A stretch of 64,000 nucleotides of DNA from Candidatus Daviesbacteria bacterium (GCA_016183305.1 JACPEW010000011.1:2020-66019); one strand, 5' to 3'. Counted from the first letter of the stretch, positions 3,356 to 44,924 are shown. Notes: a model not told the origin generated them from the sequence alone. A program made the numbers and translations.

Positions 3356-4049
3356 TAATTTAGTTGTTGTCTTTCTTTATAAAAGTAGTATATTAAAAGT
3401 ATGAGTGTAGGTTTATCATCTCCTGATGTGTCTGCCGGAATGGATATACCTCCTGGTGCTGAACGGGCATACGCAATTGATTACAGGCGTGCGTTGTAGA
3501 AGTAGTTTTAGATGCAGGACTTGTTAGGCCGGCATCAAGAGAAATTAAATGAGGATTTACTTACGATGGTAAAGGACGCACATATCCGGATTTTGTTGTA
3601 CCTGAAGCAGTAAGCAGGGCTTTAGCTGAAAACCCAGTTTATCGGGAGATTTATTAGGGGGGAGGAATCATCAAATACATTATTTTCCATTGGCCAGGCA
3701 GGGTGAACAGCGTAGCTATGTTTTTAGAGAAGAGGGTCAACCAAGTTTGTGGGATACTGACGTTGAACGGGACTGTTTTCGTAAAATGGAACCTGGGATT
3801 AAAAGTTCATTGAATCGCTTAAAGCGGTTCCCCGATACCTTTAGACCCTCTGTGGGAGAAAGATTAAGAAGTAGTTTCTTTAAAATAACCGGGTCCGCAT
3901 TTTAACTATTGCATTTTGTAAGGATTTTAGGTATATTATTAACTGTTCCAGCTTAAGAGCTGGATTTTCTTGCCCTAAATGGATTATTGCATTAGTTGAT
4001 TATTTGTTTTAAACTATTAACTAAGAACTATTAACTAAAAATTAAACTT

Positions 4050-23396: not shown

Positions 23397-24512
23397 ATGG
23401 CAAAAAATAACGGTGTAACAACATTTACTTCTGAATCAGTCTGCGCCGGTCATCCGGATAAAATATGTGATGCAATATCTGATGCAATCGTTGATGCAGT
23501 TTTAACGCAAGATAGATTTGGCCATGTAGCCTGTGAGGTCTTGGCAGGATTTAATAGAGTAGTAATTTCCGGAGAAATTACGGCTAATGCTAGAGTAAAT
23601 TACGCGGATGTTGCTAGGCAACAAATAAAGAAATTGGGATATACAGATCCTAACTACAATTTTTCTGATAAATCTCCTGTCGAAGTCCATATTCATGAAC
23701 AATCCCCTGAAATTGGTGTAGGGGTTGATAAAAAAGGGGCAGGTGACCAGGGGATGATGTTTGGATATGCTTGCACAGAAACAACCTGCTTGATGCCGTT
23801 GCCTATTGCCATCGCTCATGCTCTAACCAAAAGAATGGATCAAGCCAGGGAAGAAAAAATAGTAAAATATTTAAGACCAGACGGAAAATCCCAAGTAACA
23901 ATTGAATATAGAGACGGAAAGCCTTATAAAGTAATTCAAGTTGTTATTGCTATTCCACACGAGGAATCTGTTAACTTAAATAAGGTTAAAGATGATATAT
24001 ACGAGTCAGTTGTTATACCTGTTTTAGATGTTTATGGATTTAAAATTAAGAAAGATCAGTTAATTGTCAATGGAACAGGGGTTTGGCATCATGGTGGTCC
24101 TGCTTCTGATTGTGGTTTAACAGGCAGAAAAATAGTGGTTGATGGATATGGTGGTTATGCCAGAGTTGGTGGAGGAGCATTTTCTGGAAAAGACCCAACA
24201 AAAGTAGATAGATCAGGAGCATATGCAGCAAGATTCCTGGCCAAAAATATTGTAGCTGCTAAATTAGCAGACAGGGCAGAAGTGAGACTGGCTTACTTTA
24301 TTGGAGCAAAAAAACCAACCATGCAGGATGTAGAAACCTTTGGGACCAACAAAAAATCTCATAAAGTAATACTTTCCTTCATGGAGAAGATCTTAGATAC
24401 CTCAGTGTCAGGAATATTAAAAGGTTTAGATTTACAAAGACCAATTTATTTACCAACAGCAGCTTATGGTCATTTTGGCAGAGAAGAATTCCCCTGGGAA
24501 AAAATAGTTTAG
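23397..24512 (+). CDS. metK: S-adenosylmethionine synthetase
   Basis: FTSESV..GHPDKICD, GAGDQGMMFGYA motifs. Confidence 0.95.
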   Translation: MAKNNGVTTFTSESVCAGHPDKICDAISDAIVDAVLTQDRFGHVACEVLAGFNRVVISGEITANARVNYADVARQQIKKLGYTDPNYNFSDKSPVEVHIHEQSPEIGVGVDKKGAGDQGMMFGYACTETTCLMPLPIAIAHALTKRMDQAREEKIVKYLRPDGKSQVTIEYRDGKPYKVIQVVIAIPHEESVNLNKVKDDIYESVVIPVLDVYGFKIKKDQLIVNGTGVWHHGGPASDCGLTGRKIVVDGYGGYARVGGGAFSGKDPTKVDRSGAYAARFLAKNIVAAKLADRAEVRLAYFIGAKKPTMQDVETFGTNKKSHKVILSFMEKILDTSVSGILKGLDLQRPIYLPTAAYGHFGREEFPWEKIV

Positions 24513-25297
24513 GAAAACTCCAAAATCATTGGTAAATGATCTGAGATAGGCATATCAGGTACTTGAAACTTCGTTACCTTGATATCAGAAGATACAAAAG
24601 TGTAATCAGCATACTTTTGAAAATTAGGTCCTCCATAAAAAGGGCTTAAATTACTTCTAGTTTTTCTGATATCAAATTCTCTAATTAAATTCCTCATATT
24701 TTTCCCGTAGATTTTAATGCTTTTAGTATCAGGTAATAAATTAAAATCCCCTACTAATAAAATTTTTGCCTCATTTTTTTGATCAATAATTTCTTTAACT
24801 TTCTGAGCTTCTTCTAAACGCTCAGGAGAATCTAGTTTATTGCCAGGCATAGGCCTGCCATGGAAATTAAAAATAACATATTGCTTATTGTTTATTTGAC
24901 AATTTATGAATTGTAAAGGAGTTGGTAAGTTAGAAAAATCTTCCTTTAACTTAGGAAAAGGCTGATCTTGAGAAACAATATAATTTGCTTGATAAGTAAT
25001 TTTTATTGAATTGTTAACCAAGATAGCTGATCCAGTAGTTGAATCAAAATTAATTGGATTTGCTTCATCGTCAAAGCTTTTGATTACAGGAAAATAAAAT
25101 ACTTGGAAATCAGGAAGAATTTGTTTGAACTCTGTTAATAAATTAGCCCTGATATTTCTATATTGTTTTACCTTTGATATAGTATCCTGCATTTCTTGAA
25201 AACAGAAAATATCAGTATTTAAAGATTGTTGTTTAATAAACTCAATAAGAGGTTTAAAGCATTTTCCACCCCAAGTATTAAGCGATATGAGTTTCAT
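24509..25297 (-). CDS. endonuclease/exonuclease/phosphatase (EEP, DNase I-like) family protein
   Basis: Starts MKLISLNTWGG; motifs FCFQEM, VGDFNLLPD, SDHLPMILEFS. The 641-aa ORF in the track is an artefactual read-through from the upstream recombinase/repeat. Confidence 0.75.
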   Translation of the reverse strand: MKLISLNTWGGKCFKPLIEFIKQQSLNTDIFCFQEMQDTISKVKQYRNIRANLLTEFKQILPDFQVFYFPVIKSFDDEANPINFDSTTGSAILVNNSIKITYQANYIVSQDQPFPKLKEDFSNLPTPLQFINCQINNKQYVIFNFHGRPMPGNKLDSPERLEEAQKVKEIIDQKNEAKILLVGDFNLLPDTKSIKIYGKNMRNLIREFDIRKTRSNLSPFYGGPNFQKYADYTFVSSDIKVTKFQVPDMPISDHLPMILEFS

Positions 25298-25332
25298 AAA
25301 TAGTATTCTAAGGATATGGGTGATAAAATACA

Positions 25333-25407
25333 ACGTGGTTACGGGGATTAGGTCACCGGTAGACCGCTCGAATGGGGTTCGAGAAGCAAAGAGTTCAATT
25401 CTCTTAT
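25333..25407 (+). tRNA. tRNA-Pro (anticodon GGG), CCA encoded
   Basis: Manual cloverleaf: acceptor CGGGGAT/ATCCCCG, D-stem GGTC/GACC, anticodon stem CTCGA/TCGAG with loop ATGGGGT (U33, GGG, G37), T-arm AAGAG-TTCAATT-CTCTT, discriminator A, CCA. Confidence 0.85.
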
Positions 25408-25513
25408 CCCCGACCAAGAGAGAAAAAGAGTCCGAAAAGGCGGAGGCGCTCCGTGCGTCGCCGCCCGCACGGAGCGCCGAGAAGCCCTTTTTATATTCTG
25501 CCGAGAGCTGCCG
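25402..25513 (+). repeat. att-like repeat copy 1 (tRNA 3' end CGACCA plus 105-bp segment with 13-bp GC hairpin)
   Basis: Near-identical inverted copy at 26959-27062 (1 mismatch); diverged direct copy at 28624-28729. Contains GGCGCTCCGTGCG-loop-CGCACGGAGCGCC. Confidence 0.8.
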
Positions 25514-26911
25514 ATTAGATAAAAAGAAGTTCGAGCCGACACGTTTTGCGAAGATTGCTAAATCTTCGCAATTATTTTTTGCGCGCGCGATTTTTTGCGC
25601 CTGTAAGGCGCAATTTACGAATTCTCTCATAGGTTCGAGCCAACTCGAACCAGTCTTTTCAACTTTGGCACTCTCTTCCTGTAATTTCAGTTTTGTTTCA
25701 AACAACTCGTTTTTCTTTTGTTTGTAGGTATCGGGGTCGACAACACTATCGAGAAAACTGTCTAAAAGTGTATTTTGTTTTCGGTCTACATCTTGAATTT
25801 CAGTTTTGAGATTTTGGATTGTTGTTTCTGATGATTGTTTTTCGGCTAACTCATCTCGCTCTAAAAATTTCAGCCAATGGTCAGCCCAGCTTTGAGGCAA
25901 TACCACATCAGAAACGACTTTTCTTATTTGATCTCCCATCTCAAAACCGGTGATTGGCGCTTGAGAACACGGACCAAGTTTCTTGGTGCAACGATAATAA
26001 ACGTAAGTACATTTACGATTTGTTGTTTTGTAAAATTTTGTATGCTGTTCGGCGGTGATCGCTGCCCCACATTCACTGCATCTAGCTAATCCCAAAAACG
26101 GAAAGCGGTATGATTTCTTGAAATGCTTAGTTCGCCTTTCCATTTCCTCTTGTACTTTCTGGAATAATTCTTTGGGAATAAAACACTTGTGATTTCCGTC
26201 ATGATACTCGTCGTTGTAAAACATAATACCGATATAAAACTTGTTTGAAAGTATCTGGCGGATTTCGTTGATATGCAGTGGTCTTCCGTTTTTGCGCTTC
26301 AGATCAAACTTGTAAACATATTTCGCAATATCCGTAAAAGTATGATTTCCTTCAGTAAACATTTCAAAAACTTTCTTTATTGCTTTTGACTTTTCTGGAT
26401 CGACGTCTATGCCTCTGGTTTTAGGATTGTTCACATACCCATAAGGGGCTTTTGCCGGTCAAACTCCGTTTCGTAGTTTTTGGCGCAAACCTCGTTTTAC
26501 GTTTTCGGAAAGATTGTCCACATAATATTTCGATTGGCCGAAGGCAATTGAAAGCATAAATTTACCTTGTGGTGTGTTTTCAAACCAAGAAGTTGGAAAT
26601 TTCAGGTCAAGTAGTTTGCCGGTATCGAGAAGATAAATAATTTTTCCGCCATCCATTGAGTTTCTGGCTAAACGATCGGGGTGCCATGCAACAATCCCGT
26701 TTGCGTGTCCCTTCTCGATTTTCTTCAGGACTTCGGCAAACTGCTCTCTTCCTGGCATTTTGGCGGTTTTTGCTTCCTCGACAAATTCGATAATCTCCAA
26801 ATGTTCTCGTTTGGCAAATTCTTTTAACTCGGCTATCTGGGCTTCGATAGATAAAATTTGCTTGTCTGCTTCGTCCCTCGATTTTCTGCAATACGCGATA
26901 TATTTTGTCAT
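25514..26911 (-). pseudogene. large serine recombinase interrupted by an in-frame TGA (26456-26458); 3' end runs into repeat copy 1 without a stop
   Basis: N-terminal catalytic domain (YCRKS..., DRLAR, VDNLSENVKRGL), in-frame TGA, then continuation PAKAPYGYVNN..., recombinase domain and Cys-rich zinc ribbon (CSECG...YYRCTKK), coiled-coil. TGA is used as a stop in rpsJ and rplD of this genome. Confidence 0.7.
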
Positions 26912-26958
26912 TTTGTTTTCTTCCTAAAATTTTTGCGTTTTATTTCCTTCTTTTTTTT

Positions 26959-27131
26959 CCGGCAGCTCTCGGCAGAATATAAAAAGGGCTTCTCGGCGCT
27001 CCGTGCGGGCGGCGACGCACGGAGCGCCTCCACCTTTTCGGACTCTTTTTCTCTCTTGGTCGAGATTTACGAAAAAGTTAGAACAGAATTTCGCAATTGT
27101 TAGCTCGGCCGCCTGCGGCGGCCTCGCTTCC
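26959..27131 (-). repeat. att-like repeat copy 2 (inverted; A-part plus B-part)
   Basis: 26959-27062 is the reverse complement of 25402-25513 including the cgaccaag junction. 27058-27131 is the reverse complement of 28557-28630 (1 mismatch). Confidence 0.8.
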
Positions 27132-27144
27132 TAACGTGTCAGCT

Positions 27145-27295
27145 CGAAAAGGATTTTGAGGCACAAAATCCTCAAAAAAAACGCAAAAATTTTAAAGAAC
27201 TTTTTTAAACTTCAAATGGCCGCCCCAGTTGAACTCAAACCCTTTCGGACTTGTCTGGGACGGCCATTAAAAAGCCGAAAGGGAAGTTTGAGTTC
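27145..27295 (-). ncRNA. candidate structured small RNA (promoter, nested stems/pseudoknot, terminator)
   Basis: Minus-strand TTGTAT-17-TATAGT promoter (27325-27330 / 27302-27307). Transcript predicted with stems AACUCAAAC/GUUUGAGUU, CUUUCGG/CCGAAAG and UGGCCGUCCCAG pairing with CUGGGGCGGCCA. Terminator GGAUUUUG-loop-CAAAAUCC+UUUUCG. Homologous to the region at 28740-28880. Confidence 0.4.
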
Positions 27296-27358
27296 AATTA
27301 CACTATATAAAATTTTCAAAATAAATACAACCATTGACTACTCAAAATTCCGGAAAAA

Positions 27359-27781
27359 ATGTATAATGAAATCAGAACTGTGGAGAAAAATTACTTGAAC
27401 AAGGAAATTTTAATTACTACTGATCCTCAGAAAATTCACTTCATTCTTCGTGCCGCCTACTTAGTAGCAAATCTAATAATAAATCAGGTTTTACGCAGTT
27501 TTACCTTTGCGCTTTCTCTCTTTGGCAAAGTGGAACCGAATATATACATTAATTTCATCATTGGGTTAGTTATAAGTGAGATAAGCTACAGAGTAGCCGT
27601 TAAAATTTACCAAACTAAATTTAACTTACTAAAAAACAAATTAGACAACGAACCTCCAGAAGGTGTTAAAATCATTCGGGGGTATTATGTGTTTCTTATT
27701 AATGCCTCTTTAGCAACGATTTTAAATTTTATTTTTTTCTTAGGCTATTTTATTTTCGTAAAATTAAATAGGGGAATATAA
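27359..27781 (+). CDS. hypothetical small membrane protein (2-3 predicted TM helices); start uncertain
   Basis: ORF in AT-rich cargo. Hydrophobic stretches LRAAYLVANLIINQVL, FIIGLVISEISY, ATILNFIFFLGYFIFV. Stop lies 3 nt before the next gene. Confidence 0.5.
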   Translation: MYNEIRTVEKNYLNKEILITTDPQKIHFILRAAYLVANLIINQVLRSFTFALSLFGKVEPNIYINFIIGLVISEISYRVAVKIYQTKFNLLKNKLDNEPPEGVKIIRGYYVFLINASLATILNFIFFLGYFIFVKLNRGI

Positions 27782-27783
27782 AT

Positions 27784-28509
27784 ATGAAATTAGTTTTTAA
27801 TGTAAATAGTATATTCAGTTATTTAGGCAAAAACAAAAAGGGAAACGCCACGGAACCAAATATCATTAAAGGTTTAGAACAAGTCGTCGGTAGTCTTGAA
27901 GAAATTAAGGATAATAATTTACGAAAAGAGCTAAAAAAGTATATTGAATTTTTTCACCCGGATGTACATGCACATGTATTGCTAGAATTTAACTTCCAAA
28001 ATAAGACATATTACTATTCTCATTTGATTTGGGGTGAGGATTTCTATATTAGCGAGTCTTTCATAGACTGTATTTCTATAAGCGATCAAACTTTTTTGAT
28101 TACAAATTCGTATATGGGTAGACTATTTTTGGAAAACCCTAGAAAAATTGCGGATTATTCATACGATGTACAAGTGTATGTCGAAGCAAAGGAAAACAGT
28201 AATACTATTCCACAAACAGTAGAGACTAAGTTGCAACTGTTTGGAATATATGATCTCGAAAAAGAGAGAAAAAGCGTTGAGGGTAATCTGAATAATTCGG
28301 GTAGTGATCCTTTATCAAAAGTGTCTTCGGCCATCTTTGGTAAAGTTACTAGCGAAACTGATCTTTTGCCTAAAGAGCCTACAATTGTGTTTTATTGGGA
28401 TAAAAACCAGAATAAGAAACTGTTAACTTACCAATTTACATCGAAGAACTTGGAGTATTTTGGGCAAGCCAATATTTTAGGCAATATAATAAAATTGTTT
28501 TCTCAGTAA
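27784..28509 (+). CDS. hypothetical protein (241 aa), no recognisable domain
   Basis: AGGGG SD 9 nt upstream; translationally coupled to the preceding ORF. AT-rich relative to flanks. Confidence 0.6.
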   Translation: MKLVFNVNSIFSYLGKNKKGNATEPNIIKGLEQVVGSLEEIKDNNLRKELKKYIEFFHPDVHAHVLLEFNFQNKTYYYSHLIWGEDFYISESFIDCISISDQTFLITNSYMGRLFLENPRKIADYSYDVQVYVEAKENSNTIPQTVETKLQLFGIYDLEKERKSVEGNLNNSGSDPLSKVSSAIFGKVTSETDLLPKEPTIVFYWDKNQNKKLLTYQFTSKNLEYFGQANILGNIIKLFSQ

Positions 28510-28556
28510 ATAAGCGATTGCTCCGCAATCGCAAAATCGCGCGCGCAAAAAATAAC

Positions 28557-28729
28557 GGAAGCGAGGCCGCCGCAGGCGGCCGAGCTAACAATTGCGAAAT
28601 TCGGTTCTAACTTTTTCGTAAATCTCGACCTGGAGAGACTTTTGGAATTTTGAGCCTGGATTGCTCTTTGCGGGAGGGGGCGCGCAGAGCTCTGAAAAGC
28701 CCTTTTTGTACGAGACTGCAAGTTGCCGG
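28557..28729 (+). repeat. att-like repeat copy 3 (B-part plus diverged A-part; putative attR)
   Basis: 28557-28630 is near-identical to the reverse complement of 27058-27131. From cgacc onward it is a diverged homolog of 25407-25513. Confidence 0.75.
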
Positions 28730-28739
28730 AGTGAAAAAG

Positions 28740-28880
28740 AGCAAAAAACGGAAGGTCGCGAAAATTTTTTAAAGAACTTTTTTTCAATAGTTTTAAACTT
28801 AAAAGGCGCAACCGGGGAACTCAACTTCAAATCGCTTCTAATTGTCCGGTTGCGCCATTTAAAAGAGCAATCCCATCCAA
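28740..28880 (-). terminator. terminator/3'UTR structure of LemA-TPM operon; homolog of sRNA-like module at 27145-27295
   Basis: 11-bp perfect stem GGCGCAACCGG/CCGGTTGCGCC followed on the minus strand by UUUUAAGUUU. Shares ttaaagaactttttt...aaactt...gaactcaa motifs with 27180-27240. Confidence 0.45.
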
Positions 28881-28901
28881 AGTAATAAATTAGATAAGAG
28901 A

Positions 28902-28979
28902 TTAGGGTATTCTTTCTTGTCCGTAGGATAATGCACCAATCAATCCTAAAATAACAACAATTATTAATACAATCTTCAT
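28902..28979 (-). CDS. small hydrophobic peptide (25 aa) MKIVLIIVVILGLIGALSYGQERIP
   Basis: AGAGGT SD 8 nt upstream; lies downstream of the TPM gene in the same orientation. Confidence 0.3.
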   Translation of the reverse strand: MKIVLIIVVILGLIGALSYGQERIP

Positions 28980-29031
28980 ATTTTTTACCTCTAGTTGCAG
29001 CACATGATGTTTAGGAAAATCTTGTCAATGG

Positions 29032-30075
29032 TTACCAACTACCACTAGCTCCACCTCCACCTGATCCGCCCCCTCCAAACCCACCACTACTGCCTGAGCC
29101 AAAAAAACCACCCCCAGTAATCCACCAATTTGTTGCTTTACCAGCTTTTTTAAGCTTATTATAATTTCTAGAAAGACGCCAATCTAATAATAACCCCAAA
29201 GCACCAAACACTACTGCACAAATTATACCCGTTTCTATTGATTTAACATAGAATCCCAACATAACTCCTAGAAAAAATCCTACTAAACCACCAAACCAGA
29301 TGTTTTTACTTCTAGCCAAAAACGAAAAAAAATAAATTACCGCTACCAAAACCGCTACCCCAATTACAATGAAAAACCCACCACTGATGAGATAATAACT
29401 TCCGTATAATGCCAGCAATATAAACATTAGTAAGACTGCAAGTATTTTGGATTTTGGTGTAGCTTTTTTAAGTATAGACCTCCATACAAAAACAACAATT
29501 ACAATAAGCGCTCCTATAGAACCCAAACCTCTGAGGATATTATCAACTGCATGATAGGAACTTTGAGAAGAAGATTCTTGAGGATTTCCTATCCGATTTT
29601 GTATGGCGGTAACTCCGTTAGTAATCCCCTGATAATAATTTTCCTTTTTGAATTCTGGTGCTATGATATTCCTAATAATTTCTCCTGCCTGACTATCGGT
29701 GATACTTGACTCTAAACCATAACCTACCTCAATTCTCATCTTCCTGTCATCTATCGCTGCTAAAAATAAGATGCCATTATCTCTTGCCTTTTTACCCATT
29801 TTCCATTCTTCAAAAGTCCTAACAGTAAAATCAGTTATGTCTTGACCATTCAGACTTTGTACAGTAGCAACAGCGATCTCATTTGTGGTTCGTTGCCCGT
29901 AGTCCTTCAATATGTTCTCTAAAGTGTTTTTTTGATCAGAGGTTAAAACACCAGCAAAGTCATTGACATAACCAATAGGGGCAGGGATGTGATTTGCATA
30001 AACACCAGTACCAAAGAAAAATAATAAAACTACAGAGAGAATAACGGTAATGAGGTTACGGATAGCATTTGTCAT
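29032..30075 (-). CDS. TPM-domain (YgcG-like) membrane protein with Gly-rich C-terminal tail
   Basis: The N-terminal signal/TM, YVNDFAGVL...ILFLAAIDDRKMRIEVGYGLE and C-terminal TM helices plus GGGSGGGG tail resemble TPM/YgcG family proteins. Confidence 0.8.
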   Translation of the reverse strand: MTNAIRNLITVILSVVLLFFFGTGVYANHIPAPIGYVNDFAGVLTSDQKNTLENILKDYGQRTTNEIAVATVQSLNGQDITDFTVRTFEEWKMGKKARDNGILFLAAIDDRKMRIEVGYGLESSITDSQAGEIIRNIIAPEFKKENYYQGITNGVTAIQNRIGNPQESSSQSSYHAVDNILRGLGSIGALIVIVVFVWRSILKKATPKSKILAVLLMFILLALYGSYYLISGGFFIVIGVAVLVAVIYFFSFLARSKNIWFGGLVGFFLGVMLGFYVKSIETGIICAVVFGALGLLLDWRLSRNYNKLKKAGKATNWWITGGGFFGSGSSGGFGGGGSGGGGASGSW

Positions 30076-30078
30076 TCA

Positions 30079-30651
30079 TTATGGAAACTGTACTTTGGGC
30101 ACGTTTTCGCTATCTTGAACAGATTGGAAATAAGTTTTAGTTGAGAAGCCAAAAACCCCAGCAAAAAGTTTACCAGGCAATGTTGTAGCTGAAGTGTTGT
30201 ATTGCTGAACAAGCTCATTATACCTCCGTCTTTCGACGGCTATCCTATTTTCTGTACCAGCTAATTCATCTTGCAGCTTCAAAACAGCTTGATCGCTTTT
30301 TATCTGAGGATAATTTTCAAAAACAGCAAAAAGTCGAGACAATGTGCCTTCCAGTTGGTTAGCTGCTTGTACTTTGGTCTCCGGGGTTTGAGCGCCAGCA
30401 TACTGAATCCTTGCTGCATTCACATCGCCAAATATTTTTTGCTCTTGTTTTTGTAACCCTTTAACTGATTCTACCAAGTTGGGGATTAAATCATATCTTC
30501 TTTGATATTGAACTTCAACTTGTTTCCATTGACCTTCAATAGCATTAGTCTGAATAATAAAGGAATTGTAGTAACCTACAGAAGCAATGATTAAAACAAC
30601 TATAACAGCAACTATTCCAACCACCGTAGTTAACGTAAACGGAAGTTTCAT
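30079..30651 (-). CDS. LemA family protein
   Basis: N-terminal TM plus YNSFIIQTNAIEGQWKQVEVQYQRRYDLIPNLV is a typical LemA pattern. LemA-TPM is a common pair. Confidence 0.8.
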   Translation of the reverse strand: MKLPFTLTTVVGIVAVIVVLIIASVGYYNSFIIQTNAIEGQWKQVEVQYQRRYDLIPNLVESVKGLQKQEQKIFGDVNAARIQYAGAQTPETKVQAANQLEGTLSRLFAVFENYPQIKSDQAVLKLQDELAGTENRIAVERRRYNELVQQYNTSATTLPGKLFAGVFGFSTKTYFQSVQDSENVPKVQFP

Positions 30652-31062
30652 CTGATTTTAGTATGGAGAATAAAAGACCTATTGTCAAGCAGAATTCTCT
30701 CTCCTGGCTAAGCTTAAATATCAATATAGCCAGAATGGTAGAAATTGGCCAATTGTTTCCAACCTCTTTAAATTTTCTGTATAGTACGGGGAGTAATAAG
30801 TTTTTGCGCATAGGTTGGGTGGGGCAAGAAAACATTAAATTGTTTTTGTGTTCCTGTCCCGCAACAGCGGGACTATAAGTAATAAGCAAAGCTTGCCTTT
30901 TGCCTTCGGCAAAACGTAAAAATCGCGCGCATTCTGTCTTTGTCTTTGCAAAAAATACATAGAGCGGGGCCGGAGGCCGAGCAGATGGAGTGGCGCGCCT
31001 ACCGGTTCGATTTAAAGCAAGTTCGGATTTTTCGATAAAGGTCGACATAATTTTTGGGGACT

Positions 31063-31100: not shown

Positions 31101-33539
31101 ATGGCTCAAAATAACTCCAGTAATAATGAAGCCAAAAAAGCTGCAATCTCTGCAGCAATGGCTCAAATCCAAAAACAATATGGTACAGGTTCTATTATGC
31201 GTCTTGGTGAACGCGTTGAAAAATTTGCTACAGATACTATTCCAACTGGTTCTATTGCCTTAGATTTAGCCTTGGGTGTTGGCGGTCTCCCCAAAGGCAG
31301 GATTATTGAGATTTATGGACCTGAAGCTGGCGGAAAATGCGTTACAACAGATACTGTAGTATTTACAGAATATGGTATGGTACCAATTGGTTTTTTAGGC
31401 GATCTCAATCAGAAGGGGTTTCAACCAAAGGAAATAAAGGTATATTCGGAAGGTGGGTTTGCCTATACAAGCCACTTTTATAATAGTGGAGTACAAAAAA
31501 CTATTAAAATAAAGACTTCCTATGGTTTTGAATTAGAAGGTACACCAAATCACAGAGTTCGTGTTTTGGATAATCAGGGAGAGTATATTTGGCGGCGGCT
31601 TGATCAATTAAAGATTGATGACAGTATTGCTATCCAAAGAGGGCAATATTGTTTTGGTTCAGGAGCTGATTTATCAAACTTTGGATATATAAAAAACAAA
31701 AACAACAGTCGTGGTAAAGATTTTAATCCCCCGTCTGTTCTTACATCTGATTTAGCAAGGCTAATGGGTTATCTAGTTGGTGATGGTACTTGTACGTCAG
31801 GGGGTTTTAATAAAAATGACATCCAGATTACTATTGCAGACGATGAAATAGCTGAAGATTTTTCAAATCTTTGTCTGCGTATTTTTGGAGAAACTCCGAA
31901 AATAACTTTAGATAAGCGTACTAAAAATACACAAAACTTCAGAATTCATAATGCAAAGGCGCGAGTTTTTCTAGCATATGCTGGTTTAGATTATGTTAGC
32001 GCTGAAGGAAAAGAGATTCCTTATTCAGTAATGCAAGGCTCGCAGACAATAGTAGCTAACTTTTTGTCAGCATTGTTCGAGACTGATGGTTGTTTTAGTA
32101 CTAATACTATTGAGTATTATACAAAATCTATAGAACTTATTAAGCAGCTGCAGCTTGTTTTGTTGAATTTCGGTATAGTTTCGAGAATTAAACCTAGACA
32201 AATTAAGAATTATCCAGGTAATACTTATTATTATTTATATATAGATGGAATTAATGATCAAAAAATCTTCTATAAGGAGATAGGATTTATATCCAAGAGA
32301 AAGAATGAAAAACTTCTTTTTTATATCCAACGGGAGCGTCAATATCAAAGCAACAGGGACACAGTTCCTTTTATAAATCATAAGATTGATGAATTGATGA
32401 AAGATTATAGAATTTCTCTAGGCAGTAGTACCAGACAGCATTGGGATGCGGTATATGATTATCGATCTGCTACTCCTGGTCATTCTTCCTTGACTTACCC
32501 CAGATTAAATAAAATTTTAAACATTTTCCAACCGGTAGAAAAATTATCCGTATACCAGGAGTTAAAAGAAATATTTTTGCGGAATATTTTTTGGGATAAG
32601 ATAGTAGAAATGCAACCTTCCAAGTCATTGGTAGTTGATTTTACAGTGCCGGAAACATTATCTTTTTTTGGAAGTGGTTTTATTAATCATAATACTACAG
32701 TGGCCCTTCATGTTATAGCTGAAGCTCAAAAAAAAGGCGGGGTAGCAGCTTTTATTGATGCAGAACATGCTTTAGACCCGCAAAGAGCTCAAAAGATTGG
32801 AGTAAATTTAGATGATTTGCTTATTTCTCAACCAGACACAGGTGAGCAGGGTTTGGAAATTGCAGAAAGTTTAATCCGGTCTGGTGGGATTGATGTGTTA
32901 GTCATAGATTCTGTAGCAGCATTAGTTCCTAGGTCAGAACTGGAAGGAGAGATGGGAGATTCTTCCATGGGTGTGCAAGCCCGTTTGATGTCTCAAGCCT
33001 TAAGGAAGTTAACTGGAGCAGTTTCTAATACCAATACCATTGTTATTTTCACAAATCAGTTAAGACAAAAAATTGGAGTGATGTTTGGTAATCCGGAAAC
33101 AACTACCGGAGGATTAGCCCTGAAATTTTATTCATCAATAAGATTGGATGTCAGAAAAATTGAGAATATAAAGGATGGGGATTTGGTGGTGGGTTCAAGG
33201 CACAGAGTTAAAGTAGTAAAAAATAAAGTCGCTCCCCCATTCAGGATTGCTGAATTTGATATGGATGAAAATGGTATTTCACATGAAGGAGAGCTTTTAG
33301 ATGTAGGAATTGAGCTAGGAATCTTGACTAAATCAGGTGCTTTTATTAAATGGAAGGAAAAGTTATTAGGCCAGGGCAGAGCTGCATCTGCTGCTTACTT
33401 AAAAGAGAATAAAAAAGAGGCTGAAAAATTAGAAAAAGAGATTAGAGATGCTTGGACTAAGCAAAAAGAAGGCAAAGAAAAAATCGTAGTTGGTCAAGAA
33501 GAAGAAACTTCAGCAGGTGCTTTAGAAGAAGCGGTTTAA
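31101..33539 (+). CDS. recA: recombinase RecA containing a 452-aa intein with LAGLIDADG homing-endonuclease domain
   Basis: N-extein ends GPEAGGK. Intein starts at Cys (CVTTDTVVF) and ends HN before TTVALHV. Spliced product restores the P-loop [23 protein letters not shown]. Two LAGLIDADG blocks ([22 protein letters not shown]). Confidence 0.9.
31338..32693 (+). mobile_element. RecA intein (P-loop insertion) with LAGLIDADG endonuclease
   Basis: Cys1 ... His-Asn / Thr+1 boundaries; Hint blocks plus double LAGLIDADG. Confidence 0.85.
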
Positions 33540-36616: not shown

Positions 36617-37576
36617 ATGCTCCGAGTTCTAAACTCTTTTAAAGTCCGATCCGGGTTGAAATTAGTTGATTACCGTTTAGGAGAAGATTTAGATTCTCAA
36701 GAGATTAAAGTCTATTTCCAATCCAGGGATTACAAAATTGGAAACTTACAAAATAGTGGTAGGCATGTCACAGGAATTTTAACTAAAGCAGGAGAAAAAT
36801 ATTTCCTAAAATTATCAACCAGTGAAGGAATTAGTATTGTTACCCAAAACGAATTTAACTGGAATAATTATTTTAATGCTAATAATCTTAATAATAAGTT
36901 TCATGTCCCCAAAAACTTCGATAGTGGTTATTTTAAAGATAAATACTTTTATTTAATTACCAACTATTTTAATGGCAAATTGCTTTGCCAATTCCGTGAC
37001 CAATACCAAAATCTTAATTTATTAACTAAGTCTCTTACGCAAATTATAGAGCTTGCTGAAAACATACAGCAGCTCCCAGACTATACATTTGCTATTGCTC
37101 AATACCAAGATGGAGATTCAAAATTAAGGTTTATTAATAAAGCGAACGCTTGGTTTGATGATATACCAATTAACATTCGTGACAAATATAATCTTCAATT
37201 ACTTATTAAAGTAGCTATAAAAGGAATTGATAAATTATTTAGCAAGCCTAGGCATGGAGATTTTGCCCCTTGGCATATTATGACGCTGGGAAATAATAAA
37301 TTAGGGTTGATTGATGGTGAACATGCTTTATCAGATGGGGTAGAAAATTATGATATTTGTTATTTTATTCAGCGGGTTTTTAGTGTCTTAAAAAAACCTG
37401 ATATTGCTGAAAATATTTATTTGGAATTGAGAAAAAGAAAATATGAAGTAGAGAAATTAAAAACAATACTGGCAGCAAGGGCAATAGGAGGATTTTTAGA
37501 TGAATCATTAAACAGTAACCCAGATTATATGTTTGCTAATGCTTTTAAGGATTGGGTTCTAGCACTAAATGATTAG
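36617..37576 (+). CDS. protein kinase-like/aminoglycoside-phosphotransferase-fold protein
   Basis: HGDFAPWHIM (HGD catalytic-loop-like) and LIDGEHA (DxE/D metal-binding-like) motifs. Asn/Tyr-rich. Confidence 0.5.
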   Translation: MLRVLNSFKVRSGLKLVDYRLGEDLDSQEIKVYFQSRDYKIGNLQNSGRHVTGILTKAGEKYFLKLSTSEGISIVTQNEFNWNNYFNANNLNNKFHVPKNFDSGYFKDKYFYLITNYFNGKLLCQFRDQYQNLNLLTKSLTQIIELAENIQQLPDYTFAIAQYQDGDSKLRFINKANAWFDDIPINIRDKYNLQLLIKVAIKGIDKLFSKPRHGDFAPWHIMTLGNNKLGLIDGEHALSDGVENYDICYFIQRVFSVLKKPDIAENIYLELRKRKYEVEKLKTILAARAIGGFLDESLNSNPDYMFANAFKDWVLALND

Positions 37577-37580
37577 GTTG

Positions 37581-38801
37581 CTAAAAGGGGTTTTTAGATA
37601 AGTTAATTGCAAAAAATATATTAATTAGGTTTCTTGGAAGAAATACTCCAGTAAGATAAGGATATAATAAAGCAAAGCTGAGTATGATTAGCAATATTAT
37701 TACTAATGCTAATTTTTTTGCTTGTTGATTAGCTAAAAGCTTATTTAGTTGATAGCCTAAAGCTAAGCTTAAAAAAGGCACTGACGGGCTAAAGTGGTAT
37801 AAAAACATTATTCTGGGAGATGCTGCCCAAGGTAACCAAAAAGCTAAAAATCCTAAAATAATAAGGAATAAATTTACAAATCTTTTTCTGATAACCTCTA
37901 TAGCAGTCAATATGATGGCAATACTGCCTGCCCAAAAGAGTGCTGGATTGCCAGAAGTAAAGATATTAGCCATGGTGTTTTTTTGATAATCTACAAAATA
38001 CCAAACAGGGTAAAGATTTAAAGGCCAAGACCACCACGGTGAAGTATATGTATGAGTGGCTTTTAGATTAGTATGATACCACCACATTTGCTGTTGCAGC
38101 TCCTTAAATTGGTCAAAACTATGTCCCAGTAAAAAGAAAGGTAAATAACTGATAAAATAAATGATTGGAGGAAGCATAATAAAAAAGGTAATTTGGCGGT
38201 AATGTTTATCTTTAAGTAGTATCGGTAAAAAGATTAGGTAAGCGTACGCGCCTGCCCATTTACTGGATATAGCCAGTCCTAAAAAAATAGCTGAGATAAT
38301 AAATCTTTTGTTAAGCAGAAAAAATAAAGCAGCCAGAAAAAAAGTAACATAATAAATATCATTCATGCCTGTTCTTGACTGGACAAAATTAAGGCCATCT
38401 AGAGAGAAAGCAAATGCAGCTATTAAAGCTGCATTTTGATTTTTTAATAGCCTAATACCTAACAGATAAACTAAATAAACAGATAAAATACCTAATATAA
38501 CTCCAGGCAATCTATAGGCCCAGGCATCCTGTGTACCAGTGATAAACATTGAAACAGCCATTAGTTCCTTGGCTAAAGGAGGATGAGTCCATTCAAATGC
38601 TACCCCAGGTGGTGGGCTAGTCCACCATTCCCAGGCTTCTTTGCTTCCTTTTAAATATTCTTTAGCAGTAAAAGCATGATAAACTTCATCAAATACAAAC
38701 TTATTTGGATAGTCTAATTTATATAAGCGCAAAAAGGCAGTCAGAAGCAGAAGCAGAATTAATATTTTTTTTGGACTAACTTCTTTTTGCAGCAATCTCA
38801 T
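37581..38801 (-). CDS. GT39/PMT-family (phospholipid-carrier-dependent) membrane glycosyltransferase
   Basis: The VFDEVYHAFTAKEYL motif in the first loop and multiple TM helices resemble the PMT/PMT_2 family. Confidence 0.7.
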   Translation of the reverse strand: MRLLQKEVSPKKILILLLLLTAFLRLYKLDYPNKFVFDEVYHAFTAKEYLKGSKEAWEWWTSPPPGVAFEWTHPPLAKELMAVSMFITGTQDAWAYRLPGVILGILSVYLVYLLGIRLLKNQNAALIAAFAFSLDGLNFVQSRTGMNDIYYVTFFLAALFFLLNKRFIISAIFLGLAISSKWAGAYAYLIFLPILLKDKHYRQITFFIMLPPIIYFISYLPFFLLGHSFDQFKELQQQMWWYHTNLKATHTYTSPWWSWPLNLYPVWYFVDYQKNTMANIFTSGNPALFWAGSIAIILTAIEVIRKRFVNLFLIILGFLAFWLPWAASPRIMFLYHFSPSVPFLSLALGYQLNKLLANQQAKKLALVIILLIILSFALLYPYLTGVFLPRNLINIFFAINLSKNPF

Positions 38802-40017
38802 GTTTGAGTATATTAATACTAATTAAAATAAAAAGACTAAAAGAAATCAATGACAAACCCTTGCTATTTTCATTTAATAAGTTATAAACAGTTGGATTAT
38901 ATAGTAATTTTGGTAACTGAAAATATACTTCATTGAAGTAAACATAAACATAGTATAAATTAAAAAAATGCAAAAAAGTTAATAAACTGGTTAGTACTAG
39001 TAATAATCTATCTCTATATAGAGAGCTTAATAATATTAAAAAAATTAACGCAGGATAAAGATATCTCTCATGTACTTTAGTGGGTAAAAAGAAGAATCCT
39101 AAAAAAGCTAGTGTTGCTAATGCGTAGATGGATAGTTTCTTCCTAGTATAAAAGTATCCCAGTATAATCCAGTAAGAACTAAATAAAATAATACCTATAG
39201 TTTGATAAGAGAGATTATTCCAAATCGTCTTATCAGGAATCCAAAACCCAACTACCCCCCAAAAATTGTAAGCATTTAAAGAGGTATAAGGATACTCTCC
39301 TGCTGTATTAAGAATATGTTGAACAAGACTTATTGTTGTTTGGTTTGGGAAAAACGGAACAGCTAAAACAAAAATTATTAAAAGTCCTGGTATTGTTAAT
39401 TTAATTATATTTGAAAGCTTGAAATGGTGTACAAGATAAATAGCTAGTATTGGGGCTATAGCTATAGCTTGTGGTTTGATTAAAAAAGCTACACCAAACA
39501 TAATTGAACTTAAAATTAAGTGATTATCTTTTAAGGCAATTAGAGTAATCAATAAAAATAATGCCAAAACACTATCGATTTGTCCCCAGATGGAACTGTT
39601 AAATAAAATAGCTGGATTAAATACAATTAAGCTAAGAGCAAGTAAAGCAAGTATAAGGGAAACTTTTTTCCTAACTTCTTGATATATCAATATCCCAATT
39701 ATTAAATCACAAATAATTGCTGGCATTTTAAGCAGGAAATAAAAATTGTTATCAGGAATTAGTAACTGATTTTTTAAAAATCCCAGCAGACCGAGAACAT
39801 ATAAATATCCTGGTGTGTAGTCAGTAAAAATATCTTTGCTGTAAAACTGGGCAAAATTTAAGTTATTTAATCTTATTGCCCAAGCAAACCAGTCATTAAT
39901 ATCAATTTGAAACCCGGAAAGCGGTGCTAGTAAAAGCCTAAAAGTAATACCGGCCAAAAGTAAGAGAATTAATATTTTATTTTCTTTATTTAAAAATATA
40001 GTTTTCACCCTTACCAT
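38776..40017 (-). CDS. polytopic membrane protein, putative GT-C-fold glycosyltransferase
   Basis: About 11 hydrophobic segments; overlaps the downstream gene start by 26 nt. Confidence 0.55.
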   Translation of the reverse strand: MVRVKTIFLNKENKILILLLLAGITFRLLLAPLSGFQIDINDWFAWAIRLNNLNFAQFYSKDIFTDYTPGYLYVLGLLGFLKNQLLIPDNNFYFLLKMPAIICDLIIGILIYQEVRKKVSLILALLALSLIVFNPAILFNSSIWGQIDSVLALFLLITLIALKDNHLILSSIMFGVAFLIKPQAIAIAPILAIYLVHHFKLSNIIKLTIPGLLIIFVLAVPFFPNQTTISLVQHILNTAGEYPYTSLNAYNFWGVVGFWIPDKTIWNNLSYQTIGIILFSSYWIILGYFYTRKKLSIYALATLAFLGFFFLPTKVHERYLYPALIFLILLSSLYRDRLLLVLTSLLTFLHFFNLYYVYVYFNEVYFQLPKLLYNPTVYNLLNENSKGLSLISFSLFILISINILKHEIAAKRS

Positions 40018-40049
40018 ATTTTAAACTTTTTGTATTAATATAAGTAGAT

Positions 40050-42026
40050 ATGGAATTTAATTTAATTCTTTTGGTTGTAGGATTTATTTTTACTTTTTTT
40101 CTGCCTGGTTTTCTTGTTATAGAAACTTTTTTCTCTGAACTTCTTTTCATACAGAAAATACCGCTTTATTTATTAATTAGTGTTTTAGTTTCAACCTATG
40201 CTGTCTATTTTGTGAGTTTAATATTTGGATTCTCTCAAAGCTCTATCCTTTTTACTATTCTAATCTTTCAACTTTGGTTAGCTATTTTTTTACTAAACAA
40301 GAGATTCAGTATTAAGCAATTTTATTTTCTGCTGTTTAAAAAAAATTTATATTGTCTGAAAGAGCATATGGTTGCTTTATTGACAAGCTGCGCAATCTTT
40401 ACTTTATTCCTAATTGCATTATATCCGGCAATTTTTTCATTTTTTAATAATTACTATGTAATGGCTTCTGTTAATTGGCAAGATACAGCAATGCATCAGT
40501 CGATTATCCAAACTATCTCCCAAGGAAACTTCCCCCCACAAGCACCTTATTTTAGCGGTCAACCTTTAAATTATTACTATTTTATTGATTTTCATACTGC
40601 TATTTTGCAAACTCTTTATGGGGATTTTTTTCCAAGAATTTTAGTTTATGATAATCCATTTTTTGTATTAATGTTTTTTCTATCTATTTATGCTTTAAGT
40701 TATAGTATATTCAAAAATAAATTATCAGCAATAATTGCAGGCTTGCTTGCTGTGTTTATTGGTAATTTTCTATTCATTAGATTTTTTAAGGATATTTATA
40801 TCAATTTAGATAATTCTAATAATTTTATAAATACAATAATAAATCTAGCTGCTATACGGAGTTATACCTTAGATAATGGCCAATTAATGCAGATGGTGCC
40901 AATGGCTGATTATTTTTTGCAGAATCGTCCAATGACGATAGGTTTGCCAACAGTAGCCGTGTTAATTCTGCTACTGGTGAATGGTCATGAAAAAAATAGC
41001 AGGAAATATTTTGTATTATCTAGCTTATTAACAGCAATGCTGTTTAAATTTCAATTATTCGCATTTGGTATTTCAATAATTATTTTTCTATTAAGCTGGT
41101 TTAGCTTTTTGAATGATAATTTTAAAAAAGAAATTAGTAAATTAGTCCGCTTAGTTAGTTTTTTAGCAGCATTTTCTGTACCTGTTTGGTTACTCTTTAG
41201 AAATAATAACTATGTATTAGAAACTTTTTTAAATAATTTTCGTTTAGGGGCTTGGGATAAGACTAAAGATTTTTATTGGTATTTACAATTTCCTTTTGCT
41301 AACTTTGGAGTGCTATTTATTCTATTCTTATTTTTTGTTTTATTGATAACCCTAAAAAAGGTAAATTTAACTGGAGGATTAAAGCTTTTGTTAATTCTAG
41401 GGATTATTTTATCCGTTATCCCTTTTGTTGTTCATTTTACAATTAATGATGGAGATATGCTTAAGTTTTTCTATTTTGCTATGATCCCTTTTTCTATAAT
41501 TTCCGGTTTAATCTTACAAAAGGTTTGGCGTAGTTCATATCTTGGACCCTTATTAGTAATTTTACTAATAGTTATTTCTTCTACTAATAGTTTGTTAACT
41601 TTAGCGTCAAGTTTTTTTAATAAGTATCAAGGGTATTCACAAGCGGATTATCAAGTTGGAATGTGGATCAGAAATAACAGTTTGCCGCAATCAGTTTTTT
41701 TATCCTTGCCTACTGTACATTCTCCAATATCTGATATTGGGGGAAGATTAAGAGTGTTATCTTACACAATGTGGCCTTATTCTCATGGTTTTAATAAGGG
41801 AGTGGATAATGTTTTCAGCAGACAAGCTGATATTGAAGGTATTTATCAATACCCCTCAGATACTGAAAACGTTAAAAGAATATTTAGCAAATATGATATA
41901 AACTATGTTTATTTAGGATCAGAAGAGAAAAATAAATATCCTTTTACTAAACAAATGTTTGACCAGCAGGCTTATCTTAAATTGATTTATGACTTTGCTG
42001 ATGTGCAAATTTATCAAATATTATGA
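40050..42026 (+). CDS. large polytopic membrane protein (658 aa), putative GT-C-like
   Basis: Many TM helices in the N-terminal two-thirds plus a C-terminal soluble domain. Confidence 0.55.
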   Translation: MEFNLILLVVGFIFTFFLPGFLVIETFFSELLFIQKIPLYLLISVLVSTYAVYFVSLIFGFSQSSILFTILIFQLWLAIFLLNKRFSIKQFYFLLFKKNLYCLKEHMVALLTSCAIFTLFLIALYPAIFSFFNNYYVMASVNWQDTAMHQSIIQTISQGNFPPQAPYFSGQPLNYYYFIDFHTAILQTLYGDFFPRILVYDNPFFVLMFFLSIYALSYSIFKNKLSAIIAGLLAVFIGNFLFIRFFKDIYINLDNSNNFINTIINLAAIRSYTLDNGQLMQMVPMADYFLQNRPMTIGLPTVAVLILLLVNGHEKNSRKYFVLSSLLTAMLFKFQLFAFGISIIIFLLSWFSFLNDNFKKEISKLVRLVSFLAAFSVPVWLLFRNNNYVLETFLNNFRLGAWDKTKDFYWYLQFPFANFGVLFILFLFFVLLITLKKVNLTGGLKLLLILGIILSVIPFVVHFTINDGDMLKFFYFAMIPFSIISGLILQKVWRSSYLGPLLVILLIVISSTNSLLTLASSFFNKYQGYSQADYQVGMWIRNNSLPQSVFLSLPTVHSPISDIGGRLRVLSYTMWPYSHGFNKGVDNVFSRQADIEGIYQYPSDTENVKRIFSKYDINYVYLGSEEKNKYPFTKQMFDQQAYLKLIYDFADVQIYQIL

Positions 42027-43177
42027 AAATATTACTTCTTTTTATTACAACACTAGTTATCTATTCAATCTCCGCTTTTGGTAATGATACTCCCTATAAT
42101 TACTTTATTTATTTAGCAGATGCATTTTTACATGGACAACTTTATGTCACAGAAAGCTTTCCTTGGTTAAATGAACTAATAAAATGGCAAGGTCACTTAT
42201 ATGTAGTTTATCCACCTATGCCAGCTATAATTTTGATGCCTTATGTATTTTTGTTAGGAAAAGGAGCTTCTCAAACTCTATCTTCTATTCTCTTAGGATC
42301 TGTTAATAGTGTTTTGGTTTATCTTTTGATTAAAAGATTAAATTATTCTGTAAAAACCGCTATTTTAGTTGCAATATCATTTGCTTTTGGTACAAACCAT
42401 TGGTATTTGTCCAGTGTTGGTTCAGCATGGTTTTTAGCTCATATTACTGCATTGTTTTTTTTGCTTCTTGCTTTGTTAGAAACCTTTGGAAAACAAAGAT
42501 TATTATTAATAGGAATATTGTTAGGGATGAGCTTTTGGGCAAGGACTACTGTAGTTTTTACTATATTCTTTTTTTATGTTTATTTTTTAAATAAGTTTTG
42601 GCCTTTAAACAGGAAAAATCTTTATAACTTTTCAGTTCTTAATTTAGGAATAATATTTTTTGTTTTACTAGACGCAACATATAATTTTTTAAGATTTGGA
42701 AATTTTAGTCCTCTTTCTCCTTATTCTTTAATCCCTGGAATAGCACAAGACCCAATTTTTCAACAAGGTTTCATGAATATAGCATATATCCAAAGACACA
42801 TAGAAGCTCTTTTTCTGAAATTACCGGTTTTTTCCTCCTCTCCTCCTTTTATAATTCCTTCTTTGCATAGCACTGCTATTTGGTTTACAAGTCCAGTGTT
42901 GTTGTATTCGTTAAGGGCAAAAAAATCTTTACTAATGTTAGCTTGTTGGGTAGCTATTATTGTAACGCAATCTGTAATTGCACTATGGGGAGGAGTAGGA
43001 TTTGCCCAATTTGGTTATAGGTTTGCTCAAGACTTTATGCCTTTTGTTCTAATTTTAGTAGCTTCTGGAATAGGACAAAAACCAACAAAATTAGCATATT
43101 TTTTGTTATGTATAAGCATATTAGTAAATTTATGGGGAATAGTGATGGTAAATATGTTTAATAGGTGGACTATCTAA
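42023..43177 (+). CDS. polytopic membrane protein (384 aa), putative glycosyltransferase/polymerase-like
   Basis: Multi-TM; overlapping start/stop with neighbours. Confidence 0.55.
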   Translation: MKILLLFITTLVIYSISAFGNDTPYNYFIYLADAFLHGQLYVTESFPWLNELIKWQGHLYVVYPPMPAIILMPYVFLLGKGASQTLSSILLGSVNSVLVYLLIKRLNYSVKTAILVAISFAFGTNHWYLSSVGSAWFLAHITALFFLLLALLETFGKQRLLLIGILLGMSFWARTTVVFTIFFFYVYFLNKFWPLNRKNLYNFSVLNLGIIFFVLLDATYNFLRFGNFSPLSPYSLIPGIAQDPIFQQGFMNIAYIQRHIEALFLKLPVFSSSPPFIIPSLHSTAIWFTSPVLLYSLRAKKSLLMLACWVAIIVTQSVIALWGGVGFAQFGYRFAQDFMPFVLILVASGIGQKPTKLAYFLLCISILVNLWGIVMVNMFNRWTI

Positions 43178-44922: not shown

Positions 44923-44924
44923 GG

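Follow-up and report, generated by a model that had tools for sequence, protein, structure and literature searches.

Cargo-carrying elements that target tRNA genes have been described in Prochlorococcus as tycheposons, in which successive integrations at one tRNA displace earlier copies outward, with degenerate remnants and partial tRNAs staying behind; most tycheposons use tyrosine recombinases and a minority large serine recombinases (LSRs), and many include replication genes (Hackl et al., bioRxiv 10.1101/2020.12.28.424599). A 64,000 nt stretch of DNA from a Candidatus Daviesbacteria bacterium (GCA_016183305.1, JACPEW010000011.1:2020-66019), here called the window, includes two adjacent open reading frames, ORF1 and ORF2, that a first-pass annotation had picked out as the cargo of an element integrated at a tRNA gene. 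These genes were found to lie in what is probably a 3.2-kb integrative mini-element (coordinates 25416–28630) at the 3' end of a tRNA-Pro(GGG) gene, inserted by its own LSR. The confidence expressed here applies to the whole of the explanation set out below, i.e. to the element, the slot holding the cargo and the suggested function taken together.

Like the tycheposons, elements of this kind target tRNA genes, carry cargo and are accompanied at the tRNA by apparent remnants of older copies, but they hold only one to four genes, share a fixed non-coding platform (segments designated R1, Y, S' and X) and come from groundwater-type metagenomes. They also resemble integrons, as the recombinase stands beside a site occupied by many unrelated small cassettes and two cassettes can be found in tandem (loci L074 and L079). 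However, the recombinase is a serine recombinase and not a tyrosine recombinase (IntI), there is no attC and the cassette ends are S' and X, each cassette is accompanied by conserved flanking sequence of about 450 nt that includes a putative promoter, and the platform is located at tRNA genes. The element family behaves like the tycheposons and, loosely, like the integrons, and fails the defining features of both.

Elements and prophages of the phiC31/Bxb1 type share with the window the Resolvase, Recombinase and zinc-ribbon domains of the recombinase, and attL, attP and attR sites that have only a short core in common (CGACC here) and unrelated host-side arms. By its domains and the arrangement of its att sites, the element of the window classes as a serine-integrase integrative element. 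It differs in being 3.2 kb long without phage, replication or transfer genes, in targeting the extreme 3' end of tRNA genes, in an LSR reading frame that crosses attL into the antisense tRNA, and in a second, inverted attP-like copy upstream of the LSR gene. The family further differs in having one hypervariable slot, LSR-less derivatives and tandem arrays. In the phages with integration-dependent immunity that Broussard and colleagues are said to have described in 2013, attP reportedly lies inside a gene so that integration alters the C-terminus of its product, the affected gene reportedly being that for the repressor and the integrase a tyrosine recombinase. A crossover site within an ORF, such that the C-termini of the integrated and excised forms would differ, is likewise predicted here, but the affected gene is that for the serine recombinase itself.

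Attachment sites and boundaries of the element

The integration target, tRNA-Pro(GGG) (coordinates 25342–25416, plus strand), was identified by ARAGORN and matched the Rfam tRNA model with 55.4 bits. Its last bases, CGACC (25411–25415), are the core shared with the repeat X. The element-side arm of attL is copy A of R1 (25416–25563, plus strand; nhmmer E=4e-27), a 153-nt repeat that contains a 13-bp GC hairpin and is found again in inverted orientation as copy B (26910–27062, minus strand; 99% identity over 103 nt). Copy B belongs to an inverted attP-like unit in the interior of the element, immediately 5' of the LSR start codon. It is followed by copy B of the 80-nt unit X (27050–27131, minus strand), in which a GC hairpin and another resembling a T-arm were recognised, and which ends in CTCGACCA. 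X copy C (28557–28630, plus strand), read as attR, carries the core CGACC at 28626–28630 and departs from the internal copy thereafter. The inverted att-like repeats that had been placed on either side of the gene pair are present (27050–27131 and 28557–28638; 82 nt, 96% complementary, or 98.6% over 74 nt by BLAST), and comparison of junctions indicates that they are of att type.

At the attL junction in the window, the end of tRNA-Pro, CCCCGACCA, is joined to AGAGAGAAAAAG. At the internal X copy CTCGACCA is joined to AGAGAGAAAAAG, and at the distal X copy (attR) CTCGACC is joined to TGGAGAGAC. The same R1 sequence thus comes next after the tRNA terminus and after the internal X copy, and the distal X copy diverges just past the short core. 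Across the junctions of many loci, the core corresponds to the last bases of the resident tRNA, namely CAGC for Gln, GCAC for Leu, TCAC for Lys and CGACC for Pro. The repeats therefore stand in the attL, attP-like and attR relation expected of a serine integrase that acts at the extreme 3' end of a tRNA gene, and the junction rule sets the limits of the element at 25416 and 28630.

As R1 is conserved regardless of tRNA type, it is read as element sequence. The possibility that X and R1 are decayed tRNA copies or a plain terminator repeat was considered and dropped, because antisense R1 encodes a conserved tail of the LSR and the 3' end of X varies with the target tRNA. Together with the domains of the LSR and the maps of related loci described below, the junctions at tRNA-Pro(GGG) bear out the original proposal that the pair is cargo of a tRNA-integrated element.

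The recombinase gene

The LSR gene (25417–26911, minus strand) has a conserved core (25601–26911), with Resolvase (Pfam PF00239, 3.6e-23), Recombinase (PF07508, 8.7e-15) and Zn_ribbon_recom (PF13408, 1.3e-5) domains, and a tail that runs through antisense R1. The core is interrupted by an in-frame TGA (26459–26461, minus strand) at a position occupied by Trp (TGG) in all 19 homologues examined. Recoding of TGA (code 4 or 25) was ruled out, since TGA is the stop codon of six of the 37 long ORFs in the window. Given that TGA is in frame, replaces a Trp found in all homologues and is used as a stop by the host, the LSR gene of the window is a pseudogene, although the repeats are still 96–99% identical.

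Beyond the core, the LSR frame passes through S', the hairpin and antisense R1 (25342–25600, minus strand, in the window; also in L043, L017, L056 and L012). Antisense R1 encodes a C-terminal tail that is conserved at the protein level (WLEP.REFVN.AL.AQKIARAKN.C.DL...VGSNFFL..R.LSA...), and the LSR-side copy of the S' motif (25572–25594; AAAATCGCGCGCGCAAAAAATAA on the minus strand), which is coding here, translates to AQKIARAKNN. Intact LSR homologues end inside or just past the antisense tRNA, at 502–525 aa, and the frame of the window continues into the next gene without meeting a stop codon. An ORF at 24509–26434 was rejected as a gene, being an artefact in which the LSR tail and the antisense tRNA are read together with a neighbouring gene of the exo/endonuclease/phosphatase family. 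As the LSR tail is encoded by antisense R1, the recombinase gene contains the crossover site. The LSR would consequently have one C-terminus in the integrated form and another in the excised form, ending in antisense tRNA or antisense X.

A family of related elements

The non-coding region upstream of the gene pair provided a search pattern, TTAAAGAACT-N8-14-CAAAYGGCCGC, which matched 81 metagenome contigs, of which about 79 share one platform. Two loci (L033 and L046) are apparent chance matches and were excluded from the Y alignments, and the same pattern found no match in a viral collection. Maps of the family were drawn using profiles of X, R1 and Y, the S' motif, tRNA scans and tblastn searches with the LSR. 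The recurring order is tRNA(+), R1(+), S'(-), LSR(-), R1(-), X(-), Y(+), promoter, cargo, S'(+) and X(+), with junctions between tRNA(+) and R1(+) and between R1(-) and X(-). The resident tRNAs are of seven kinds (Gln, Pro, Lys, Arg, Leu, Val and Ile) with nine anticodons.

LSR matches were found in 29 loci and 13 neighbouring ORFs are homologous to the LSR, the LSRs of the family being 48–91% identical to that of the window. The closest platforms are L048, which is also located at tRNA-Pro(GGG) and shares 85.5% nucleotide (nt) identity with the window over 25406–27330, L049 (LSR 91% identical) and L054. Other loci depart from the recurring map. The LSR is absent from L036, L077 and L086, in which the order is tRNA, R1, Y, cargo, S' and X, and L045 is arranged likewise but with X undetected. 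The cargo segment is inverted relative to the LSR and tRNA in L020 and L073. In the tRNA-Lys element of L074, the X–R1 unit in the middle (3281–3494) has a Gln-type 3' end, with GGCCAGCCA joined to GTAAAGAG, indicating that cassettes with different tRNA targets are mixed in one array.

A literature search, of incomplete coverage and thus weak as evidence of novelty, returned no description of such a family in the candidate phyla radiation (CPR)/Patescibacteria. We tentatively suggest, while regarding it as somewhat doubtful, that the window belongs to an undescribed serine-recombinase cassette system, in which tiny tRNA-targeting elements trade a highly varied stock of cassettes of one to four genes, some of them LSR-less, mobilised in trans and stacked. 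In such a system the recombinase gene would span its own att site and Y and the promoter would be shared, making it an analogue of the integron for hosts without integrons, and ORF1 and ORF2 would represent a new membrane-associated accessory function.

Variation in the cargo slot

The position between Y with its promoter and S' is a hypervariable slot, filled in the window by ORF1 and ORF2. Homology between the window and loci L048, L049 and L054 breaks off at around 27241–27330 and resumes at 28533, and the slots of these closest platforms hold an RDD-family protein (L049; also found in L045) or unknown proteins. Overall, 56 complete slots (0.5–3.8 kb, one to four genes) were recovered, with 89 ORFs in 58 families, and on comparison of these slots no other cargo was related to ORF1 or ORF2.

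Pfam assigned the cargo to S-adenosylmethionine-dependent methyltransferases (five), Asp/Glu racemases (two) and RDD proteins (two), with single cases of a short-chain dehydrogenase, NIF3, a glycoside hydrolase family 5 cellulase, a class I aminoacyl-tRNA synthetase, tRNA-editing domains, GNAT, GrpB, EamA, NUDIX, a Trp repressor, sugar transferases and others. Comparison of the cargo with PADLOC gave only generic methyltransferase, JAB and HD matches. The slots are therefore occupied mainly by enzyme-like proteins and membrane proteins, not by defence systems. A defence or toxin-immunity role had been read from the location of the pair, and that argument does not hold, because the slot carries at least 58 unrelated families, mostly of enzyme-like or membrane proteins.

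The ORF1 and ORF2 genes

ORF2 (27784–28509, plus strand) encodes 241 aa, as originally annotated. ORF1 had been read from an ATG at 27359 (27359–27781), but its start was revised to a TTG at 27395, giving a gene at 27395–27781 (plus strand) for a protein of 128 aa. The revision was made because the orthologous loci L001 and L003 have stop codons in the 12 codons upstream of the TTG, the sequence at the earlier ATG, ATGTATAAT, contains a conserved -10 box, GGAG is present 9 nt upstream of the TTG (27382–27385), and the product is called as 128 aa in other assemblies. The stop codon of ORF1 (TAA, 27779–27781) is 2 nt 5' of the ATG of ORF2, which is preceded by the ribosome-binding site AGGGGA, consistent with the close coupling of the two genes noted earlier.

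Relative to the orthologues in L001, L002 and L003, dN/dS was 0.10–0.13 for ORF2 and 0.14–0.34 for ORF1. These values rule out spurious ORFs, and both are therefore real genes maintained by purifying selection. The GC content of the pair is 31.3% compared with 35.8% for the window (9th percentile among equal-sized windows), and the repeats adjoining the pair are 42–45% GC. The pair is thus AT-rich as reported, but only in relative terms, as the GC-rich repeats are the main source of the contrast with the immediate flanks. The lowest GC content in the window (28–32%) occurs at 37000–45000, a region more AT-rich than ORF1–ORF2 that contains several long ORFs on both strands.

The linkage of the two genes was examined across loci. 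In L002, the ORF1–ORF2 module has nearly the same borders as in the window (27332–28530) and is located between a small ORF and a gene like that for inosine monophosphate dehydrogenase, without platform sequence. In L094, which also lacks platform sequence, an ORF1 homologue (42% identity) is directly upstream of an ORF2 homologue in two pieces of 66 aa and 112 aa (881–1900), the split being either a frameshift in a pseudogene or an assembly error. In other loci ORF1 is absent beside the ORF2 homologue. The ORF2 homologue is the sole gene between Y and X in L004, is behind Y with an unrelated membrane protein downstream in L007, adjoins an IS1595 transposase in L006 and a P-loop protein in L005, and stands alone in L092/L093. 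The suggestion of a two-component system is weakened by these latter loci, and the pairing is conserved in one clade and not obligatory for the ORF2 family.

Predicted proteins and their relatives

ORF1 is basic and hydrophobic, with Kyte-Doolittle segments at residues 62–84 and 108–137 (numbering of the 140-aa reading), and the AlphaFold2 (AF2) model has three long helices, at low confidence (predicted local distance difference test, pLDDT, 54). This agrees with its description as a small membrane protein with two or three transmembrane segments. ORF2 is acidic and predicted to be soluble, as proposed, and was modelled as an alpha/beta fold with moderate confidence (pLDDT 61, predicted template modelling score 0.62) in which residues 140–197 are disordered.

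Neither protein matched a family in Pfam, NCBIfam or PHROGs, or any PADLOC-DB v2 family at E<=1. A Foldseek search of PDB and BFVD with the ORF2 model gave nothing at E<0.01, the top matches being weak and unusable ones to Bet v 1/START (SRPBCC) proteins (TM<=0.19). A profile of ORF2 found no match among PDB sequences, and no Pfam match at E<=10 recurred among nine members of the ORF2 family. The absence of recognisable domains from both proteins was therefore upheld in Pfam, NCBIfam, PHROGs, PADLOC, PDB and BFVD, and none of these searches related ORF2 to a housekeeping enzyme unlinked to ORF1 or to mobile elements.

A word-indexed search returned a single relative of ORF2 (93% identical), and a full HMMER search of 1.84 billion cluster representatives returned seven true relatives with 30–93% identity; a further candidate, P0011, was discarded as a spurious repeat protein. 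One more (P0012) was added by a profile search, bringing the family to about eight relatives, and none was found in GTDB genomes, JGI metagenomes, IMG/VR or INPHARED phages. ORF2 thus founds a very rare protein family without known relatives. Motifs common to its members are GKNSK..N...PNII..LE, YYSH, LPLFG and LP.EP.I, and the conserved polar residues are K16, N17, K19, E32, E40, E55, Y78-S79-H80, D95, N108 and D206.

Conserved non-coding sequences of the platform

Upstream of the slot are a leader with motif Y (27175–27331, plus strand) and a putative promoter (TACTCA-N17-TATAAT; 27339–27367, plus strand), as read from the sequence. L004 and L007, the ORF2 homologues of which share about 40% identity with ORF2 and lack ORF1, retain the upstream non-coding sequence of the window with compensatory changes in a long hairpin, and retain the promoter as TTCTCA-N17-TACAAT.

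In 65 distinct copies of Y, two helices, P1 and P2, both covary (score 0.236, compared with 0.107 in shuffles, none of 500 reaching 0.236, and <=0.073 when the partners were slid), with compensatory changes at four P1 pairs and at eight outer P2 pairs. In P1, 81 A·C cells were found against 2 G·U cells, so that better pairing would be expected on the cargo-antisense strand. The two helices cannot both form fully and may alternate. A compact H-type pseudoknot was judged unlikely, as one connecting loop would be 0–1 nt on either strand. An Rfam search of 25200–29100 passed only the tRNA, with nothing credible at E<=10, and Y and X are therefore without an Rfam family. A small RNA, a regulatory structure and a single-stranded DNA site are all conceivable roles for Y.

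The 8-bp palindrome reported 3' of the ORF2 stop codon was located at 28514–28532. It has a 3-nt loop and marks the end of the variable cargo, with homology to L002 stopping within it, at 28530. The tract 3' of the hairpin is A-rich and not T-rich, and a scan found it terminator-like on the minus strand only. The first conserved platform sequence after the cargo is the non-coding, cargo-side copy of S' (28533–28555, plus strand), which forms a 100% inverted repeat of 23 nt with the LSR-side copy. The S' motif is coding in the LSR yet is retained as non-coding sequence after unrelated cargo in most loci, with four mismatches or fewer, suggesting either a role at the DNA or RNA level or descent of the cassettes from the 3' end of the recombinase gene.

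Sequences beyond attR

Downstream of attR, a degenerate copy of R1 (R1*) is followed by a 3'-truncated copy of Y (Y'; 28631–28871, plus strand), recognised by nhmmer (E=1e-13 for R1 and 1e-14 for Y), alignment and fold. These may be what is left, behind the tRNA gene, of an earlier element belonging to this family, a reading that fits the tandem arrays found in other loci.

A weak X-like sequence ending in GGTCGACA was also detected at 30964–31047 (nhmmer E=6e-4), between a LemA gene and recA. With R1* and Y' it could bracket the LemA and TPM-domain genes (29032–30651) as the cargo of an older, decayed element. Locus L008, found via the neighbouring TPM gene (82% identity), was considered as an empty site and rejected, as it is syntenic for LemA–TPM alone and does not define the insertion; its LemA–TPM pair is in a different neighbourhood from that of the window. 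The recA ORF (31101–33539) encodes 812 aa and includes an insert that starts after the P-loop lysine (between GPEAGGK and C) and ends in HN before T, and that looks like an intein.

Possible origin and role of the gene pair

On comparison of loci, the own LSR of the element would have integrated it at CGACC, at the 3' end of tRNA-Pro(GGG). With the nonsense mutation in the LSR, the copy in the window would be immobile unless helped in trans, and the host would retain the cargo because it profits from it. Recombination within the conserved flanks, or the capture of cassettes that lack an LSR, is probably how cargo is exchanged. ORF1 and ORF2 would be expressed as one transcript from the platform promoter. 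ORF2 is the likely functional core, because no gene other than its homologue lies between Y and X in L004, a related element, and ORF1 may be a clade-specific membrane partner that anchors or supplies it. Our best guess, made with low confidence, is that the pair has an accessory enzymatic or ligand-binding activity at the membrane, as suggested by the conserved polar residues of ORF2 and the mostly enzyme-like cargo of sister elements; this would be likelier than defence or a toxin.

Several observations weigh against this explanation. The flank 3' of attR is itself R1-like, which requires the added assumption of an older remnant, and the internal inverted X–R1 copy is left without explanation. 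In L001, whose copy of the pair is the most similar (92% nt identity), X ends at model position 58 and is followed by unrelated sequence (1250–1340 of L001), which misfits a crossover at the 3' end of X unless the contig is rearranged. LSR-mediated integration at CGACC was deduced from comparison alone, and a strict consensus scan did not call the promoter. The models of ORF2 and ORF1 are mediocre, Foldseek covered PDB and BFVD only, and nothing other than the conserved residues and the cargo of sister elements points to an enzyme.

The first-pass annotation had favoured an accessory system such as a two-gene defence, abortive-infection or toxin-immunity module, with ORF1 as membrane effector or immunity factor and ORF2 as cytoplasmic sensor or toxin. 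This would account for a small membrane protein closely coupled to a soluble protein on a mobile element, neither having known domains, and for a pairing that persists in L094 at 42% identity; in L005, the gene preceding the ORF2 homologue also has a faint match to a Zeta-toxin/AAA-like P-loop (E ~0.01). However, neither protein matched PADLOC, the sister slots hold mostly enzyme-like and membrane proteins with generic PADLOC matches, and selection on both genes is ordinary purifying selection. ORF2 homologues also stand alone in five settings (L004–L007 and L092/L093), which is unusual for an obligate toxin-antitoxin pair, and a defence module is considered quite unlikely. That the two proteins instead serve the element itself, as a directionality factor or in replication or transfer, would fit their being the only element genes besides the recombinase. 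This is hardly credible, as the slot holds 58 unrelated families in sister elements, so that no slot gene is essential to the element, and the pair is also found away from platform sequence in L002 and L094.

The inverted X repeats could also form an invertible switch, in which a recombinase or RecA flips 27132–28556 and changes the junctions between cargo and recombinase. Both orientations of the Y–cargo–S' segment relative to the LSR and tRNA do occur across the family (window, L043 and L056 versus L020 and L073), the X copies within the window are 96–98.6% alike, far above X between loci, suggesting continuing exchange, and the LSR is flanked by inverted R1 copies (99% over 103 nt). But the two orientations are known only between different loci and not within one population, and the putative cargo promoter is inside the flipped segment, so that inversion would not turn it off. 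In addition, the LSR of the window is a pseudogene, and inversion between an attP-like site and attR is not a normal reaction of large serine recombinases. A switch is therefore thought unlikely, and it is compatible with integration of a mini-element at tRNA-Pro(GGG) rather than an alternative to it.

Implications

The element family is of more interest than the cargo pair. It adds a conserved structured motif (Y) that is absent from Rfam, and it provides natural combinations of LSR, attP and attB whose targets, the 3' ends of tRNA genes, can be predicted. As the recombinase gene extends across the site of crossover, the C-terminus of the enzyme may be under the control of integration state. 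The platform, a compact recombinase and att sites of about 2 kb found at seven kinds of tRNA with nine anticodons and carrying at least 58 unrelated cargo families, would explain the exchange of accessory genes among small-genome groundwater bacteria, the type of host being deduced from sample names only.

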